Part shown: piece after piece, positions 3,006 through 21,612 of the stretch | Layout of the letters: each line of letters opens with the position of its first letter | How positions within the stretch are numbered: position 1 is the first letter of the stretch | IMG/VR virus record: IMGVR_UViG_2541047885_000001 | DNA from: a virus | Taxonomy: Duplodnaviria > Heunggongvirae > Uroviricota > Caudoviricetes | DNA: 21,692 bases | Direction: 5' to 3' (one strand) | Notes under the pieces: model-generated | The model's input: the letters and a program-made list of their open reading frames with translations, nothing else | Database searches by the model: none | Told to the model about the DNA's origin: nothing | Made by a program: the position numbers and the translations under genes

Positions 3006-3569
3006 TTGAAAACCATATCTATATTAAAGGTTGCATTAGGCGTCGCTATTATTTTGACTCTCTCAATATTGTTTTATTTTTACCACAAAAAAACTGCTAT
3101 TGCTCTTGATGGTCACACGGCAAACTCATTTTTCTCAGAGTACATAGTGCCGCTATCAGGAAGCGGTATAACAAATAAATATACTGACTATGACATCAAA
3201 TATGGAATTGATGATGGGAAGACTATTGTATTACATGTAATCATTAAAAACCTAATGACAGTAAATAAAAATACAGACTTTAACGATAAAAATACAATAC
3301 ATCACAACAACAGCAAAACATTAATTTCTTATAGTAGCAACATCTATACGGATAAATACCTAAAATACATATCAGAAGATACAATAAAAGAAACCCGCGA
3401 AAAGTTAAAAAACATATATTGTGCATCCGGCAGTTTTCACAAATTATCGCCGCAAGAGCGTTTATTCTACGAAGCAAGAAAACAACGTAAGTCAATAATA
3501 TTACATTATTATGCTGATTCAGGGGAATCACTCATATTTAATATTGGGGTTTCCCCTGAATCATGCTAA
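3006..3569 (+). CDS. Hypothetical single-pass membrane protein (187 aa from TTG 3006; alternative ATG at 2979), low-GC cargo
   Basis: Perfect AAGGAG (2993..2998) 7 nt upstream of TTG 3006. N-terminal hydrophobic helix ISILKVALGVAIILTLSILFYFY followed by HKK. Same strand as and just downstream of mnt-like. Asn/Lys/Tyr/Ile-rich. Confidence 0.7.
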   Translation: MKTISILKVALGVAIILTLSILFYFYHKKTAIALDGHTANSFFSEYIVPLSGSGITNKYTDYDIKYGIDDGKTIVLHVIIKNLMTVNKNTDFNDKNTIHHNNSKTLISYSSNIYTDKYLKYISEDTIKETREKLKNIYCASGSFHKLSPQERLFYEARKQRKSIILHYYADSGESLIFNIGVSPESC

Positions 3570-16008: not shown

Positions 16009-16305
16009 TCACTCCTGTTCACTGGCCTCTTTGGCCATCTTCAAATACTGTTCAGGGCAATGCGCCATAACGCGCTGAAACAGTTCCAGCGCCAGATTGC
16101 GTTGCCCCTCATTAAATGCCATTGCCATAGCGTCCATCGGTGAGATAGCGGAAAACACACGGCCTTTCTCCAGCACCGACCAGACAACGCGACGCCCCTG
16201 TTCACTGCTCATGACAAAGCAAATGTCATCAATTTCACGCTGTGCCATGTCACGTTGCTTACGGGCGTTTTCTTCTTTCAGTTGATCGTCTTCGTAATCT
16301 GTCAT
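16009..16305 (-). CDS. Hypothetical small protein (98 aa) between portal and scaffold
   Basis: ATGA overlap with the portal stop (16302..16305); its stop is 2 nt before the scaffold ATG. Confidence 0.6.
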   Translation of the reverse strand: MTDYEDDQLKEENARKQRDMAQREIDDICFVMSSEQGRRVVWSVLEKGRVFSAISPMDAMAMAFNEGQRNLALELFQRVMAHCPEQYLKMAKEASEQE

Positions 16306-17981
16306 TGTGATTGCCCACCCTGACCACTAACTGCATTCGCCATAGCTGACAAAACACTCGGATCCGAAGTTTTAGCTTCGCTTAGCGTCTTGGCACCCTG
16401 TGCCGCCGCCATCCCCATCGCCATCATTTGTTGCTGCTGTTGTTGCTGTGCCCGTTGCTGGCGAGCCTGCTCAACCTGTTCCTGCGGAACAATGACGGTT
16501 GGAGACACTCCGGACATATCAGCGAATGCATCGATCGCCTGATCAACGTTGAGTTTGTCGAGAGCTTCTGGTTTCGCTTGCGCAAGTTGACCAATGAAGT
16601 TAACCGTGGACGCCAGACTGGACAGGCCGATAGACTTCTGCGCCTGAGCCATGACGGAAATGTATTCGACCTTCAGGGGCATACCTTCCATCGCGTCAGG
16701 CGGTGGCGGCAGCATGTTTTTACGCACCATCATCGAGAAAGCGCGGTCAATGAGAGGATTAAGACATTCGTCGTTCAGACGCTCCAGAACCGGCCCCAAC
16801 ATCAGAAGTTTTTCTTCTTTCATTTCGATCACCGCTTCAACAGGCATCGAGCGGGTATTGATGTTCTGCAACATCATGAACAGATCGACAAAGTAGGCGC
16901 TGTTAATGATTTGACGGGTGTCCTGAATGTCTGCCACCAAATCTGCTGTACTGGGGTTAACCAGATAAGCAGGCCTGAAACCATCCTGACCAGTAATCTG
17001 ATCGATATACGTGATGTCGCCAGGAAGAAGGGAGGCACGCTGATTCTTGAGGGAAGTCGGAGCAACCATCGGCGGATTGGTGGCTTTATCAATCAACTGC
17101 GACTTGCGCTTCTGGAGAAGCTGCAATGCCTTAACAGGTCCAAGCGCCAGCATACCCGGGCATGATGATCCATAAACATCTTCGCCGTTAACTTCCCAGC
17201 GCGGAGCCATAATTGGAAACTCATCGAATCCGGACTCACGCAACAACTTGTCGTTATCGCCACCAACCTCGTAATAAACCGATTTGAATGGCTTGTTCTT
17301 GCTATCCAGCTTCGATGTATCGCGGTCAATGTTCGGGTAAACCGAATGCATCACTTCAATCCACTTCTCGTAGGTTCCGCTTTCCCACATGCTTTTTACG
17401 GATTCGCTGACGTTATTTAGCCCGAACTCCTGAACAAGCTGACGAACAGTCATAGAGAACTTGCGAAAACAGGTGTCCACACTGCCACGAGGTGAGTTAG
17501 CCAGGTAGTAACTGCCTATCGGGAATGGCATTGTGCGAATGATGTCCTCGTCATCCTCCAGCACTGCCATTGCACCAGTGCTGTATGTGCCGAGGCTTCC
17601 GTATAACTGCGGCAGCGACTGATAGAGATTCGACTTATTGAACATATCGTTCATGCGGTTCTGCACCGCCTCAAGCCACAACTTAACAGGGCCATAATCC
17701 ATCATTTCAGGATCTGGCGTAGCCAGGCGAAACCACGGACGCGCGGGGCTTGTGATGCCTGACATCATGCCGCTGGCGAGAGTGCGCGCCGCCATAGTCC
17801 CGGTCGAATCAATAATGCGTGTATTGCGTCGATCGTTACGGTTGACCTCAGAAGTCAGAAAGCGGGAACCACGCGGGTTGATGTAATCACTCAACTCGCG
17901 CCAGTGCGGCTCGAACGACTGACGCTCGCTTTCAAGTTGTGCGAACTGTTTGTTCAATCGCTCTTTAGTTGTTTCCGCCAT
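16302..17981 (-). CDS. Portal (head-to-tail connector) protein, 559 aa
   Basis: Size and position typical of a T7 gp8 / epsilon15-type portal; RBS GGAG 8 nt upstream of the ATG. Confidence 0.9.
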   Translation of the reverse strand: MAETTKERLNKQFAQLESERQSFEPHWRELSDYINPRGSRFLTSEVNRNDRRNTRIIDSTGTMAARTLASGMMSGITSPARPWFRLATPDPEMMDYGPVKLWLEAVQNRMNDMFNKSNLYQSLPQLYGSLGTYSTGAMAVLEDDEDIIRTMPFPIGSYYLANSPRGSVDTCFRKFSMTVRQLVQEFGLNNVSESVKSMWESGTYEKWIEVMHSVYPNIDRDTSKLDSKNKPFKSVYYEVGGDNDKLLRESGFDEFPIMAPRWEVNGEDVYGSSCPGMLALGPVKALQLLQKRKSQLIDKATNPPMVAPTSLKNQRASLLPGDITYIDQITGQDGFRPAYLVNPSTADLVADIQDTRQIINSAYFVDLFMMLQNINTRSMPVEAVIEMKEEKLLMLGPVLERLNDECLNPLIDRAFSMMVRKNMLPPPPDAMEGMPLKVEYISVMAQAQKSIGLSSLASTVNFIGQLAQAKPEALDKLNVDQAIDAFADMSGVSPTVIVPQEQVEQARQQRAQQQQQQQMMAMGMAAAQGAKTLSEAKTSDPSVLSAMANAVSGQGGQSQ

Positions 17982-17995
17982 TTCAATGACTCCGG

Positions 17996-18202
17996 TTACT
18001 GACCAAGCAGCGTTTTACCGCTGGTATTAGCGGTTGATGTGTCACCCTGAGAACCGGTAAGCAGCGTAGAACTACGACCAGCAGCAGCGCGACGGCGACG
18101 AGTTTCTTCGTCGCGGGCATCAACAACGGCGGCATCCTGCTCCTGTGGTGCTGCCTGAACTTCTGGTGTTGCAGGCACTGATGGTGAGCTACCCATGCAC
18201 AT
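17996..18202 (-). CDS. Hypothetical small protein (68 aa) directly upstream of portal
   Basis: ATG at 18202 preceded by GGAGTCATTGA-T; the same 11-mer precedes the portal ATG. Hydrophilic, Ala/Arg-rich. Confidence 0.45.
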   Translation of the reverse strand: MCMGSSPSVPATPEVQAAPQEQDAAVVDARDEETRRRRAAAGRSSTLLTGSQGDTSTANTSGKTLLGQ

Positions 18203-18222
18203 ATCAATGACTCCGTACGCAA

Positions 18223-18300
18223 TTAAATTATTACCAATTTAACCACACATGATTTATTTATCGTAGGTAGTTGACATTTAACGCACAAATTATTACCTTT
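18223..18300. promoter_or_regulatory. AT-rich promoter-like region at the edge of the terL-portal insertion
   Basis: Plus strand: TTGACA (18271..18276), 17 bp, TACCTT. Minus strand: TTGTGC, 17 bp, TACGAT. Confidence 0.3.
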
Positions 18301-19011
18301 CAGGTAACCAAAGAGTTCATTCCGGTTACTAACCTGACTGGCTTGTCGTTAAATTGAACAGGTGGAGTGAGCTTTTATTTTGAGCAGTACGGCGTATGGC
18401 ACATGCGCCGATAGCGGTCTGGATACGTTTAAGGGGCACCCTCCCTTGCTCGGGCAAACGAACCAGGTAGCCGGAATGTGCAAGTCGAGCGGTTTTATTC
18501 CGCGCACGGGGATTCACCATCCCGGCGATCAGGTGTGACACCTCGGAAGAGACGAGGATGCAACAGGTAAGAGCATTGAGATTGATCGTCGTTCCTGGGC
18601 CCAAGGTCTGCTCGAAGTCAGTGCTCTTTCCGTTGTGGTGAATGCGCAGGCTGATGCGCACCCCGTGAACGTGGGGGAATGGGTAAGGCATAAGCCTGAG
18701 TTGGAAGACAAGCTGCGTGAATAGCCGGAAGTCAGGGTTACCCAACAAACTCAGTGAAAATCATGACGCATATCCTCTTGAGAGAGTGGCAGCTAACACT
18801 GAGCATATTTCAAGCCGGAGATCAGCACCGGCCACCACAACCCAATCACGTTAGGACCGTGATACGGCAGTACCAGGCAATGCGTGTAGCTTTGGCGGTG
18901 GCAGTTCTCCTTCTTCTGACCACCGCCCTTTTTACAGCAGAACGCCATTCCGATGACGTTGCGCTGTAAACCCTGCATCACCCGCCAAGGAAGGCACTCC
19001 GTTGATCATTC
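18300..19011 (+). ncRNA. ORF-poor ~700-nt region; candidate structured RNA or long regulatory leader (function unknown)
   Basis: No convincing ORF on either strand despite ~55% GC; bounded by a consensus -35 upstream and an intrinsic terminator placed 12 nt before the next RBS. Several GC-rich hairpins visible. Confidence 0.2.
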
Positions 19012-19036
19012 GCCCGGTTCGTCCGGGCATTTTTTT
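19012..19036 (+). terminator. Intrinsic terminator or attenuator immediately upstream of the 110-aa gene
   Basis: GCCCGG-TTCGT-CCGGGC hairpin followed by a T7 tract, then AAGGTGA RBS and the ATG at 19049. Confidence 0.6.
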
Positions 19037-19048
19037 AAGGTGAAAATC

Positions 19049-19381
19049 ATGAAAGAGAAGACTGCAGCTGAGCGCTATGCCGCAGCTATCAATGCCGCGA
19101 TGGCGATTGTAAACCTGCGTGAAGAGATTAAAGATCTCCTTGCAATTATCCATAACAACCTGACATGTACAGAGTTGCTTGGCGGTCAGTACAACGGTGA
19201 GGCGGTGAAGGAGGCATTTAAAAATGCCGAGGTAGGAATAATTCCAGCAAACTATGTCAAGGCTGAATGTGTGCTCCTAAAGGCACGAGTGAGTCTGCAT
19301 GAAGATCCTGGTAATCTCGGTCGAACTGCAATGCGTTACGTGATAGACGAGTCGAATGCCAAACACAATCTACCGAAATAA
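19049..19381 (+). CDS. Hypothetical protein (110 aa), cargo gene inserted between terL and portal on the opposite strand
   Basis: ATG at 19049 with AAGGTGA 5 nt upstream; in ORF-track frame 18953..19381; followed by the palindrome and a terminator. Confidence 0.7.
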   Translation: MKEKTAAERYAAAINAAMAIVNLREEIKDLLAIIHNNLTCTELLGGQYNGEAVKEAFKNAEVGIIPANYVKAECVLLKARVSLHEDPGNLGRTAMRYVIDESNAKHNLPK

Positions 19382-19385
19382 CACC

Positions 19386-19397
19386 GTGACATGTCAC
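19386..19397. repeat. 12-bp perfect palindrome GTGACATGTCAC, copy 2 (preceded by CACCGTG)
   Basis: Identical to 1129..1140; lies 5 nt after the stop of the 110-aa gene and just before a terminator hairpin. Confidence 0.8.
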
Positions 19398-19401
19398 AAA
19401 C

Positions 19402-19428
19402 AGCCAGCCTATGAGCTGGCTTTGTTTT
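19402..19428 (+). terminator. Terminator hairpin between the converging 110-aa gene and terL
   Basis: AGCCAGC-CTATGA-GCTGGCT stem-loop followed by TTGTTTT. Confidence 0.5.
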
Positions 19429-19471
19429 ATCCTCACCAGAGGATATCAACGATATTATCCCCACCAGCGGA

Positions 19472-20947
19472 TTAAGCATAGGGATCGTAATCTGTGATGG
19501 CCTTGCCTTGCTGGTTCTGCTGACCGGGAATTCGCAGACGCTTCGACACAGGGAACGCAAACGTCAGCAGTAGCGCATCGCCTTTACCCGGCGAACGCCC
19601 AAGCCGCTCCTTGATATCCTCCTTCGGTTCGATAACGATTTTACCGTCCACGCGAACTTTGTACTCTGCCGCCGACAGGTCGTCTGCAGTTTCCTGGTCA
19701 TCCAGCATGCCGCCCAGCCTCAGCCATGTCTTACATGAGTTGAACATCTCCCCACGCTTGTTAAGCATCTGCGGGTCAGTAGACGCGCCACCGAACGGAA
19801 CAAGTTGCCATGTACGACCCCAGCCGTCACCGATTGACTTCAAACCGGTTCCGTAACCGAAGTCGATGAACACCGCGTCAGCCTGATACTGGTCTTCAAA
19901 GTCAGCGATACGCTTCGCCATAATCAGATCGTCGGTAGTCTTGTTGCCAGTCCACAGCACCTTACTGTGTAGCCCCTGCCGCAGGTATATCACAGCGTCA
20001 TCAACGCCGGAGTATGCCGGGTCAACGCCGATTATCACCGGAGCATGTGCAACCTGCGCAGCGGTTACCACCAGTTTCATTGCCTCGTCAGTAAGACCGG
20101 TAGGGATAAACTGCAATTCAGATGCATCAGGGAATATGCCACGCACACGGATTTTAACGAAGTCGCTATCTTCCCCGTAGTCATCAACCCATTTCTGCAA
20201 CTGCTGTTTGTTGGTGCCTTCCACCGTCCTGCTGTCAATCTGCGCAGTTTTCCAGCGGTGTTTGTATTTGCGGAAACATTCACGGAAACGCCCGGTGTTA
20301 CGTGTAGGGTTTCCGAAAGCCACCCAGATAATCTCAGTGTCTTCGTCCGTTAGCGCACCCTCGGCAACTTCCCACACCAGATCCGCAATGTTCGACGCTT
20401 CATCAAATACCACGATGATGCGTTTACGCTCGTTGTGTAGTCCGGCGAATGCCTCAGTGTTGTGCTCAGACCAGGGGATTGCGTCAGCTCGCCACCGCTT
20501 GTCGTGCCCAGGGTCATTGCTGTACATCGCGGTAGCGGTACAGGTAAACCAGTCTTTCGTGATAGCAAGGTTTGACCACTTGATAATTTCCGGCCAGGTC
20601 TTCGTTCGTAGCTGGTTGTCGGTGTTGGCGGTCACCACGACCTTACAATCCTCGCAAGTGGACATGCCCCAGTTGATCAGCATTGAGATGAATGCGGATT
20701 TACCAATACCGTGACCAGAAGCACGTGCCAGCATAAGCGGCTGATATCGCGTCTCTGGATTCTGCAGGTGATCACGTATCTCTCGGAACGCATCAGCCTG
20801 CCACTGACGTGGGCCGGTGGCATGTGCCAGTTCAGTCCCCTCTTCCCCCCATGGGAACGCATAGAGGGCATAGCCAAGCGGATCGTGAGTGAACCCTGCA
20901 ATATCCTCGATTAACTGCTCTTCAGGAGATAACGCTGTATCTGTCAC
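19472..20947 (-). CDS. Terminase large subunit (491 aa)
   Basis: Walker A-like ARASGHGIGKS, Walker B-like IIVVFDEAS, and a C-terminal nuclease-like region (IIGVDPAYSG); ATGA overlap with the terS stop. Confidence 0.92.
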   Translation of the reverse strand: MTDTALSPEEQLIEDIAGFTHDPLGYALYAFPWGEEGTELAHATGPRQWQADAFREIRDHLQNPETRYQPLMLARASGHGIGKSAFISMLINWGMSTCEDCKVVVTANTDNQLRTKTWPEIIKWSNLAITKDWFTCTATAMYSNDPGHDKRWRADAIPWSEHNTEAFAGLHNERKRIIVVFDEASNIADLVWEVAEGALTDEDTEIIWVAFGNPTRNTGRFRECFRKYKHRWKTAQIDSRTVEGTNKQQLQKWVDDYGEDSDFVKIRVRGIFPDASELQFIPTGLTDEAMKLVVTAAQVAHAPVIIGVDPAYSGVDDAVIYLRQGLHSKVLWTGNKTTDDLIMAKRIADFEDQYQADAVFIDFGYGTGLKSIGDGWGRTWQLVPFGGASTDPQMLNKRGEMFNSCKTWLRLGGMLDDQETADDLSAAEYKVRVDGKIVIEPKEDIKERLGRSPGKGDALLLTFAFPVSKRLRIPGQQNQQGKAITDYDPYA

Positions 20948-21543
20948 TGATTGCCATCCTGACGTTCTTTCAGTCTCTTCCTGGCTGCCGCTATGCGATC
21001 AGCAATTGTCACATTCACATTAACATCCAGGCGTTCTTTGAATGCGTTGACGTCGACGTGCTTACCAATCAGTTCGAGGTTCTTCACCTTGTCAGGCCAT
21101 TTAATTTTTTTGAGGATGCCAACCAGCTCTTTCTCGTCTCCACGGCCTTCGAACATGTCGGCCAGTTCGAAACCTGTCAGGTACTGCCGCCAGACCTTAG
21201 GCCATTCCGAGACCGGCTTGATGCTCATATCGTCGTTGAGAATGTCAATCACGTCCATCTGGTCGATCTCCACCAGGCGCATGAGAACGTAATCAGCACT
21301 GACGCGCATTCGTTTGTTGCGCTCCTCCATCAACTCGGCAATCCGTTTCTGAATGCGTTCATCGCGCATCATGACACTGGCTTTAACTGCCGCTGTATTT
21401 GGGGAGAATCCTGCATTAATCGCAGCCTGAGTCTGGTTTTCAGGCGTTTTGATGTATGACTGGCAATAAGCCTCCTGCATTGCTGTTAGTGGCTTAAATT
21501 GCGTTGATTTGCGTTTATAGGTTTTAGGTTCAGCAGGCATCAT
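20944..21543 (-). CDS. Terminase small subunit (~199 aa from the ATG at 21543/21540; the ORF track extends to TTG 21588)
   Basis: Immediately upstream of and coupled to terL; N-terminal region has a terminase small subunit-like pattern (LTAMQEAYCQSYIKTPENQTQAAINAGFSP). GGTGG lies 5 nt before the second ATG. Confidence 0.8.
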   Translation of the reverse strand: MMPAEPKTYKRKSTQFKPLTAMQEAYCQSYIKTPENQTQAAINAGFSPNTAAVKASVMMRDERIQKRIAELMEERNKRMRVSADYVLMRLVEIDQMDVIDILNDDMSIKPVSEWPKVWRQYLTGFELADMFEGRGDEKELVGILKKIKWPDKVKNLELIGKHVDVNAFKERLDVNVNVTIADRIAAARKRLKERQDGNQ

Positions 21544-21550
21544 AACCACC

Positions 21551-21579
21551 GTGGTAATAGTTACCGTTGTGGTAATAGT
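21551..21579. repeat. Direct repeat GTGGTAATAGT x2 (7-bp spacer) in the terS 5' leader
   Basis: 11-mer at 21551..21561 and 21569..21579, between the upstream terminator and the probable terS start. Confidence 0.5.
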
Positions 21580-21584
21580 ACCAT

Positions 21585-21612
21585 GCAAAATAAAGCCGCC
21601 ATAGTTGGCGGC
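21585..21612 (-). terminator. Intrinsic terminator upstream of terS
   Basis: GCCGCCA-TAGT-TGGCGGC hairpin; on the minus strand it is followed by TTTATTTT. Confidence 0.5.

Follow-up and report, generated by a model that had tools for sequence, protein, structure and literature searches.

We analyzed the IMG/VR virus record IMGVR_UViG_2541047885_000001, a stretch of 21,692 nucleotides (nt) hereafter called the window, with the focus on the region between a TTGACA hexamer at 18271 and the start codon of a gene for a 110-amino-acid (aa) protein at 19049. Judged by its sequence, the whole window is a Uetakevirus (phiV10/epsilon15-like) prophage of Escherichia coli; E. coli strain BCE049 (NZ_CP042250, prophage at about 3.648 Mb) matches a 1.25-kb query at 99.9% identity, and the genes flanking the region resemble those of phiV10, TL-2011b, and their relatives. 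A plus-strand cassette is inserted here between the large terminase gene and the 68-aa and portal genes, and it is composed of a non-coding RNA (ncRNA) region, the 110-aa gene, and a terminator (Table 1). The cassette (18203-19471) lies antisense inside the minus-strand late operon, so late transcription must cross 1.2 kb antisense to structured RNAs or restart within 18203-18300.

Table 1. Features of the cassette and of the flanking genes in the window. RBS, ribosome-binding site; T1-T3, terminators; V1 and V2, variable segments.
Feature	Position	Strand	Description
Portal gene	16302-17981	minus	late gene
68-aa gene	17996-18202	minus	late gene
Promoter-operator region	18271-18307	plus	putative promoter: -35, weak -10, palindrome
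5' leader	18308-18388	plus	weakly characterized; compared with the upstream sequences of L002 and L003
Domain X	18389-18559	plus	pseudoknotted RNA of about 170 nt; two proposed pseudoknots, five helices
P1x	18390-94/18406-10	plus	loop GCACAU (18399-404) complementary to AUGUGC (18476-81), 70 nt downstream
P2x	18419-22/18463-66	plus	CUGG/CCAG; encloses a variable hairpin
Second variable hairpin of domain X	around 18485-18505	plus	
P4x	18509-13/18519-23	plus	loop CACC (18515-18) pairs with GGUG (18532-35)
P6x	18541-57	plus	CCUCG-GAAGAGA-CGAGG; GAAGAGA loop almost invariant
Stem a cassette	18561-18634	plus	5' arm CAACAGGUAAGAGCAUUGA (18561-79), cap V1 (18580-18617), 3' arm UCAGUGCUCUUUCCGUU (18618-34)
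tRNA-like core (TLS)	18635-18841	plus	closing helix, AAU linker, H1, V2, H2
Core closing helix	18635-40/18833-38	plus	GUGGUG/CACCAC; extendable to GUUGUGGUG/CACCACAAC
H1	18644-59	plus	GCGCA-GGCUGA-UGCGC; D-like position
V2 payload	18660-18813	plus	154 nt; hypervariable, where the anticodon arm would be
H2	18814-32	plus	GCCGG-AGAUCAGCA-CCGGC; abuts the 3' strand without spacer; T-like position
Small hairpin	18844-18863	plus	AAUCACG-UUAGGAC-CGUGAU; -5.7 kcal/mol
DicF-like small RNA	18870-18933	plus	single-stranded seed region UGCGUGUAGCU (about 18876-86) and T1
T1	18894-18933	plus	hairpin GGCGGUGGCAG...CUGACCACCGCC, U5 tail; -19.8 kcal/mol
Inter-terminator segment	18934-19036	plus	hairpin 18934-67, then T2
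T2	19012-19036	plus	GCCCGG-UUCGU-CCGGGC, stem 19012-28, U7 19030-36; -13.1 kcal/mol
RBS	19037-42	plus	AAGGTG, directly after T2
110-aa cargo gene	19049-19381	plus	ATG 19049; phrog_27507, unknown function, E 3.5e-75
T3	19402-19428	plus	between the convergent cargo and large terminase genes; 98-100% conserved in phiV10-type relatives
Large terminase gene	19472-20947	minus	late gene
Small terminase gene	20944-21588	minus	late gene

Coding capacity and annotation of the region

The original prediction, made from the letters alone, described about 700 nt with no plausible open reading frame (ORF), and this was borne out: about 770 nt after the TTGACA hexamer hold no credible ORF. The ORFs within 18277-19011 reach at most 139 aa and mostly begin with TTG or GTG; no Pfam match was obtained for those of at least 52 aa, and the PHROG matches were short and weak (E 0.003-0.03). 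The predicted guanine-cytosine (GC) content of about 55% corresponds to 55.0% over 18389-18935 and to 52.5% over 18277-19011, against 48.1% for the whole window. The alternative of a pseudogene remnant was rejected, as no frame-restorable ORF with protein homologues was found; homologues of the region differ by compensatory changes and by indels whose lengths are not divisible by three.

Public annotations over the region consist of 'hypothetical' ORFs on either strand, or of nothing. Two 'hypothetical protein' coding sequences (CDS) lie on the opposite strand over related elements, PhiV10p04 (L001 3434-3685) over the transfer RNA (tRNA) gene tRNA-Arg of phiV10 and mEp460 gp37 (L007 2443-2811) over domain X, stem a, and the core. 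Both are probably mis-annotations, and the weak PHROG matches of the ORFs of the region may stem from such entries.

No RNA family had been matched by eye, and the covariance scan with Rfam 15 likewise returned nothing in the region at gathering thresholds. At E<=10, the scan of 18150-19500 yielded a sub-threshold DicF match and chance matches, with no riboswitch or leader among them. The only hit of the window at gathering thresholds was a sar RNA (RF00262) at 2125-2192 on the plus strand, with 45.2 bits, just over the gathering score of 43; it is a P22 immI-type antisense RNA adjoining a 314-aa minus-strand ORF (1179-2123).

Conserved structures and mosaic distribution of the modules

For domain X, we scanned viral contigs for GGTARCCGGAATGTGCAAG, which gave more than 120 loci, and aligned 23 non-redundant sequences (alignment A1). 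Standard pairs occupied 95.9% of the cells, compared with 27-44% when the partners were slid by 1-3 columns; both sides had changed in 11 of the 29 pairs, and none of 500 shuffles reached the observed pair values. The P4x loop pairing covaries, appearing as AACC/GGUU in mEp460-type sequences. The pairing between GCACAU and AUGUGC is uninformative due to the invariance of its positions. A covariance model built from 21 homologues, with the sequence type of the window excluded, matched the window at 18389-18559 over its full length and on the plus strand only (137.5 bits, E 4.4e-40), and the copy in phage P1 scored 133 bits. The same model found no match in HK022 (20000-32000), lambda, the K-12 Qin dicF region, ZCKP8, or the N-leader loci.

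Domain X was present in 1836 of 5426 complete E. coli genomes, at 1920 chromosomal and 550 plasmid places, with no annotated feature under it among the matches listed and a single copy per phage record among the records listed. An additional scan of genome contigs used a 15-mer, which was too short, and only 6 of its 120 loci were genuine, including those of Kosakonia sacchari and Escherichia whittamii. In the window, domain X lies about 85 nt past the predicted start and ahead of T1 and T2; in several families, it begins roughly 10-50 nt past predicted promoters.

Stem a is a covarying 17-bp helix. In about three-quarters of the loci (duplex predictions, about 100 loci), the 17-18 nt that adjoin the 5' side of the core form a helix with a stretch lying 40-130 nt upstream, and the arms are highly divergent between loci, as in CAACGGGAAGAACACUGGGG/CCCAGUGUUCUUCCCGUU, CACAUGAGAGCGCUCCGCC/GGCGGAACGCUCUCAUGU, and CAACUGUAACGACGCUUC/GGGAGCGUCGUUACAGUU. 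Among 22 no-bulge sequences, up to 6 pair types occurred per position, and 91% of the positions were paired against 61% with shuffled 3' arms (0 of 1000 shuffles), a paired fraction that is somewhat inflated because these sequences were picked by duplex energy; the diversity of pair types is unaffected. The cap V1 is variable and often contains the T-arm-like GGUUCGAAUCC, and a V1 of exactly the type found in the window also occurs within Phapecoctavirus tRNA arrays. The 5' leader harbors a stem-a-like 3' arm, GGAGTGAGCTTTT, similar to the arms of the repeated cassettes. The stem a 3' arm GUGCUCUUUCCGUU (18621-18634) has UGCUCUUU in common with the rrn/nut boxA consensus, and a true TGCTCTTTAACAA precedes the core by 60-90 nt in N-leader loci; the motif of the window is base-paired, so the likeness is probably fortuitous.

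The core has the order of a tRNA, with a closing helix, a short linker, a hairpin, a variable region, and a hairpin abutting the 3' strand. Its homologues were collected by scanning viral contigs for the 25-mer GTGGTGAATGCGCAGGCTGATGCGC, which resulted in more than 120 contigs with 115 distinct contexts. In the pair counts (alignment A2), 94.6% were paired versus 25-52% when slid, and 9 pairs had changed on both sides. H2 shows the compensatory changes GCAGG/CCUGC, GCCAG/CUGGC, and GUUGG/CCAAC as well as wobble pairs, H1 covaries (GGCGG/CCGCC, GCACA/UGUGC) in the few sequences not fixed by the search pattern, and the closing helix tolerates U.G and becomes GCGGUG/CACCGC in P1. The loops GCUGA (H1) and UCAGC (H2) are complementary in nearly all members. 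Locus L198 was considered as a case of covariation between these loops and rejected, because its changed bases can also be read as stem. For the 3 nt that precede GUGGUG, two partners are available, the beginning of stem a and the 3 nt that follow CACCAC; both pairings covary in examples (GUU with AAC, CCU with AGG), which hints at alternative pairing.

The comparative folding proposed with the original prediction revealed compensatory changes in three modules, namely domain X, stem a, and the core, across many phages. Together with the independent domain X model, they strongly support its suggestion of a structured or separate ncRNA.

The core is exchangeable with tRNA genes. In phiV10-type phages, its slot holds a tRNA-Arg(UCU), which begins (GUGGCAU) at the same nucleotide after stem a as the core does (GUGGUG). 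Two loci are intermediate: L211 keeps GUGGUG/CACCAC and has canonical D and T arms with an 80-nt insert, and L208 holds a 127-nt element that passes the Rfam tRNA threshold (43.9 bits) and scores as a tRNA with an insert. The core of the window is shaped and placed like a tRNA and is not claimed to be one. It was found in four contexts. In lambdoid contigs, it separates nutL (boxA/boxB) from the start codon of N-like antiterminators; in T1-like phages, it follows stem a and precedes tRNAs; in the window, mEp460, and many other loci, a DicF-like RNA comes after it; and in L048, it directly follows a promoter.

The V2 payload ranges from 12 to 162 nt across loci and comprises dozens of unrelated sequences. 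The V2 of the window is rare, occurring in 2 of the 5426 E. coli genomes, and a copy with 85% similarity lies in the N leader of the P22-like contigs L090 and L107. A mimic of a host RNA was tried for this V2 and rejected; it has no similarity to E. coli sequence beyond two copies of the same prophage. Other inserts contain D-arm-like and T-arm-like sequences that were not called by ARAGORN. The payload of L112 was likewise tried as a whole tRNA, which ARAGORN did not confirm; only D-arm-like and T-arm-like sequences are present. In L065, L074, L084, and L087, V2 copies nt 242-282 of E. coli 16S ribosomal RNA (rRNA), the helix 11 region, with 33 of 40 positions identical and helix-preserving substitutions; this V2 could be a mimic or decoy of the rRNA element, or a chance capture.

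The small hairpin after the core recurs after the core or a tRNA in many loci, with varying stems. It is followed by a small RNA that is DicF-like in build and is no member of that family by the Rfam criterion; of 16 loci scanned with the DicF model, only the K-12 copy passed (76.7 bits). Relatives keep the seed CUGUGUGUAGUC ahead of differing terminator hairpins, the pattern expected of a seed region. A simple terminator count in the relatives misses long-loop DicF-like terminators, and its zero counts are unreliable. The inter-terminator segment is about 80-91% conserved in phiV10, BUCT554, and Klebsiella phages, before different cargo genes.

The strong terminator that the original prediction saw running into the RBS of the 110-aa gene was confirmed as T2, and T1 had been missed. 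No promoter-like hexamers were seen between T1 and the RBS, so the claim that the gene is reachable only by read-through is plausible. For the 110-aa protein, neither Pfam nor PADLOC gave a match. The gene behind T2 is hypervariable in Uetakeviruses (L001-L004 and other loci), where Gp49-family proteins and at least eight unrelated small proteins occur, and in relatives the same terminator-RBS junction stands ahead of many other, unrelated cargo genes. The cargo slot is possibly a moron, defence, or anti-defence hotspot.

The region had also been read as the attenuator leader of the 110-aa gene, in which a ligand, tRNA, protein, or translation would switch the hairpins at 19012-19036. A long structured leader, a terminator abutting the RBS, and the lack of a visible intervening promoter agree with this classical attenuator or riboswitch. 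However, no complement of the T2 5' arm (GCCCGG) occurs in the 70 nt upstream, the Rfam scan found no riboswitch or leader, this leader and terminator also stand before unrelated cargo genes, the modules elsewhere lie upstream of genes of other kinds (N, ban, tRNAs, early-left genes), and a complete terminated small RNA lies inside the supposed leader. We therefore regard classical attenuation as very unlikely.

The BLAST comparison with phage records showed that the region breaks into pieces with different relatives. The segment 18203-18577 matches phiV10-type phages at 96%, in the same cassette. The segment 18389-18551 matches P1, P7, and D6 at 79%, as well as mEp460 and Stx2 phages, and in P1 it lies 14 nt past the tRNA-Ile in the ban operon. 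The segment 18568-18641 is found in Phapecoctavirus, in an unannotated gap within a tRNA array. Many T1-like Klebsiella phages carry 18619-18660 (100% over 40 nt), shortly before their tRNA-Arg and tRNA-Met. The segment 18812-19052 recurs in BUCT554 and in Klebsiella prophages before different genes. The single region of about 700 nt in the original prediction thus stands as an ORF-poor stretch but consists of modules that are each conserved on their own and are joined as a mosaic.

In mEp460 and Stx2a_1447, domain X lies just downstream of cI and PL, and the array of domain X, stem a, core, and DicF-like RNA directly follows PL and its operators and precedes the early-left genes, with no N-like ORF annotated. 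The N-carrying phages have nutL and the core and no domain X. The mEp460-type phages (L007 206-394, minus; L143 5052-5240, plus) also carry a C4 antisense RNA (83.6 and 82.3 bits) and isrK (67 and 64.2 bits), which adjoin an antirepressor gene and are unrelated to the region.

Such mosaicism would also be expected of debris, that is, of decayed tRNA genes and recombination scars of a tRNA/moron hotspot, in which conserved flanks would persist only as homology arms for module exchange and the RNA would have no function of its own. A real tRNA in the slot of relatives, the T-arm-like or D-arm-like fragments in V1 and V2 that ARAGORN does not call, and the rarity of the window V2 are consistent with this explanation. 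We consider it unlikely: several independent modules keep their helices by compensatory and wobble changes, the junctions retain invariant nucleotides from P1 and the lambdoids to T1-like phages and Uetakeviruses, a third of the complete E. coli genomes carry domain X, and the seed is conserved despite the differing terminators.

The functional strand is the plus strand. G.U pairs exceed A.C pairs in domain X (36:12) and in the core (26:18), and the tRNA-Arg, the U-tailed terminators, the promoters, and the downstream genes (N, ban, cargo) have this orientation in common. A functional minus strand, acting as an untranslated spacer of the late operon with, for example, a processing site or a late-promoter region, would fit the late genes that flank the module on that strand, the lower fold z-score there, and the need of late transcription to cross the region or restart at 18203-18300. 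The excess of G.U pairs, the plus orientation of the tRNA-Arg, terminators, DicF-like RNA, and cargo genes, and the co-orientation of the modules with N, ban, and tRNAs in other phages argue against this alternative, which is hardly credible.

Proposed processing, read-through and antitermination

The TTGACA -35 with a weak -10 was found as predicted: the -35 is at 18271-18276, and the best -10 is TACCTT at 18294-18299, with 17 nt between the two. TTACCTTTCAGGTAA (18293-18307), a perfect palindrome that overlaps this -10 as well as the likely start site, looks like an operator for some regulator. Across divergent Uetakeviruses of E. coli, Enterobacter, and Klebsiella, the spacing from TTGAC(A/C) to the conserved palindrome AATTATTACCTTTNAGGTAA is constant, which argues for a regulated promoter. 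A second copy of AATTATTACC lies at 18226-18237, 60 nt upstream, and a one-mismatch palindrome at 77-91; with at most 2 mismatches, the window holds 3 matches versus 0.41 expected by chance.

We favor, with reasonable rather than firm confidence, a plus-strand, phage-borne, processed ncRNA operon of exchangeable modules, with a variable cargo gene expressed through read-through. Transcription would start at the operator-overlapped TTGACA promoter and give a transcript of roughly 630-730 nt. The polymerase would pass domain X, then the stem-a hairpin cassette, then a scaffold of tRNA shape, which stands in for the tRNA-Arg of sister phages and holds the 154-nt payload at the place of the anticodon arm, and finally the small hairpin and the DicF-like small RNA ending at T1. 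The tRNA-like element and the long helices may serve as punctuation for host RNases, with the tRNA/rRNA-processing enzymes RNase P, RNase III, and RNase E cutting at the tRNA-like element and its flanking helices. The products would be stable structured RNAs and a seed-bearing small RNA acting on host or phage mRNAs, and the minority of polymerases passing both T1 and T2 would express the cargo gene. The data show the lack of coding, the strand, the borders of the modules, their conserved structures, the exchange with a tRNA, and the distribution; we infer the activity of the promoter, the processing steps, the role of the small RNA in trans, and the passage of the terminators.

Several observations weigh against this explanation. 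The -10 is weak, and the consensus promoter scan reported no promoter in the region at its threshold. The DicF model scored 25.7 bits on the window (E 0.005), under the gathering score of 48. ARAGORN found no tRNA in the window, the Rfam tRNA model had no match at E<=10 in 18150-19500, and the core, with the loops GGCUGA and AGAUCAGCA, lacks the T-loop (UUCRANY) and D-loop (GG) consensus as well as CCA, so RNase P cleavage is an analogy; the 3' flank of the core is AACC in the window and varies among loci. The complementarity of the H1 and H2 loops shows wobble-type changes only and no double changes, which makes the loop-loop contact a proposal and not a finding. The sequences behind some of the helix support had been chosen through fixed motifs or pairing filters, and single-sequence folding was unexceptional, with z-scores of -1.6 for the plus strand and -2.8 for the minus strand. 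Finally, the processed operon gives no role to its best-conserved part, domain X.

A role for domain X is offered by another explanation, which may hold alongside the processed operon and has a modest chance of being right: the array, and above all domain X, would be a cis-acting leader for processive antitermination, comparable with the put RNAs. The nascent RNA would fold, bind RNA polymerase, and make it resistant to both terminators and to Rho on a long untranslated RNA, allowing expression of the cargo gene here, of the early-left genes in lambdoids without an annotated N, and of ban in P1. The put RNAs, two stem-loops of about 70 nt, are located past the promoters PL and PR, and they suppress both the intrinsic and the Rho-dependent kind of termination (PMC9378689). 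In mEp460 and Stx2a_1447, the array occupies this position as the PL leader, and it is this putL-like placement in lambdoids without an annotated N that keeps antitermination as a hypothesis. The absence of domain X from phages with N, the short distance of domain X from predicted promoters in several families, and the two strong terminators between the promoter and a good RBS, with varied cargo kept behind the junction, agree with it. In contrast, domain X has about 170 nt, five helices, and two proposed pseudoknots, neither its sequence nor its model matches the HK022 immunity region, and the one copy per record listed leaves no putR-like second copy. In P1, moreover, domain X is more than 2 kb from the promoter and just before ban, with no terminator seen between them.

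The two ideas can be joined in a speculative proposal, which we hold as doubtful. Domain X would be a new promoter-proximal, put-like antiterminator acting on the polymerase in lambdoids without an annotated N, in P1, and in Uetakeviruses. The core would be a natural 'tRNA scaffold' for hypervariable payloads, some of them mimicking cellular RNAs (16S helix 11, tRNA-like arms) and perhaps serving as decoys against host defences that target RNA.

No fewer than three conserved modules of structured RNA are thus frequent among the phages of E. coli, Klebsiella, Salmonella, and Enterobacter, at places where public records show blank DNA or doubtful ORFs. Taken alone, domain X occurs in about one in three complete E. 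coli genomes and also in P1, in Stx2 phages, and adjacent to dicF-type RNAs. Naming the modules would clean up the annotation. They are a candidate answer to how lambdoids without an annotated N pass the terminators of the PL leader, and the tRNA-like core may be the natural counterpart of the engineered 'tRNA scaffold' for RNA payload display. In Uetakeviruses, the cassette also marks a hypervariable cargo site with an unusual logic of expression from behind two terminators.

Comparison with known systems

The modules are new to Rfam 15 and unannotated in the RefSeq/GenBank rows examined. The literature consulted, on GOLLD/ROOL, DicF-like RNAs with tRNAs, the N leader and RNase III, the exact conserved sequences, and the P1 ban operon, did not describe them; it was limited, and an earlier description is possible.

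GOLLD and ROOL, large ornate RNAs of prophages that often lie beside tRNAs, resemble the region in being phage-borne, structured, tRNA-associated, and of unknown function. Unlike the modular region of Enterobacterales phages, they form a single fold of 400-800 nt and occur in other hosts, and the region has no Rfam match.

The put RNAs of HK022 provide a parallel in position, as putL also lies downstream of PL in a lambdoid without N and upstream of terminators. The difference in build is considerable, about 70 nt and two stem-loops against about 170 nt and two proposed pseudoknots for domain X, and BLAST, regular-expression, and covariance-model searches of HK022 20000-32000 found no match.

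Modules of tRNA-like structure for processing or stability are known from the tRNA-like domain of transfer-messenger RNA, bacterial YrlA, mammalian mascRNA, and engineered 'tRNA scaffolds'. Like them, the core has an acceptor-like closing stem, a linker of 2-3 nt, D-like and T-like hairpins, and a foreign insert; unlike them, it would form its elbow by pairing its two loops over 5 bp and not through the canonical D/T contacts.

The lambda N-leader sequence was checked for alignment with the closing helix of the core. In N-carrying lambdoids, this helix (GGGGUGUGGUG...CACCACACC) aligns with the lambda stem GGGGUGUGUG...CACACACC, which is positionally equivalent and is the RNase III site controlling N synthesis. 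The interior of the lambda stem is unrelated and lacks H1 and H2, and the window has neither a nut site nor an N gene.

The dicB operon of the K-12 prophage Qin, with DicF (RF00039), carries a small RNA with the terminator hairpin UUUGGCGG... inside a longer prophage transcript with genes downstream. Mature DicF arises when RNase E and RNase III process this longer transcript of the dicB operon. The RNA of the window fits the same layout: an RNA of roughly 50 nt, an intrinsic terminator of the form UUUGGCGG..., a prophage operon, and genes downstream. The roughly 170-200 nt upstream of dicF (L130, about 3170-3380) correspond to a decayed stem a and a 'Qin-type' core (GUUGUGGCAACCCGCGAAAUGG...), which is intact in mEp460-like phages. 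By BLAST, K-12 Qin gave weak matches, and the relationship becomes clear via intermediate 'Qin-type' loci. The two systems differ in that the seed of the window, UGCGUGUAGCU, is not that of DicF, and in that K-12 lacks domain X.

The ban operon of P1 (Pban, dicF-like region, tRNA-Asn, tRNA-Thr, tciABC, tRNA-Ile, ban) contains homologous modules. Domain X stands right after the tRNA-Ile, with 78.9% identity to that of the window, and three tandem units of stem a and core lie on the operon strand between tRNA-Thr and tciA (L006, AF234173 68204-73372, 980-1690), one of them with the compensatory closing helix. In the P1 record, the modules are unannotated or lie under the opposite-strand CDS plp and upl, which may be doubtful. 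Both systems are long, largely untranslated RNAs built from modules, and the P1 operon also has tRNAs and an annotated dicF-like region. In P1, domain X is distal, real tRNAs are present, and the last gene of the operon is the helicase gene ban, where the window has a small cargo gene preceded by two terminators. Systems of this kind are known, namely long phage leaders and operons that mix tRNAs with a DicF-type small RNA (P1 ban, Qin dicB) and processed N leaders.

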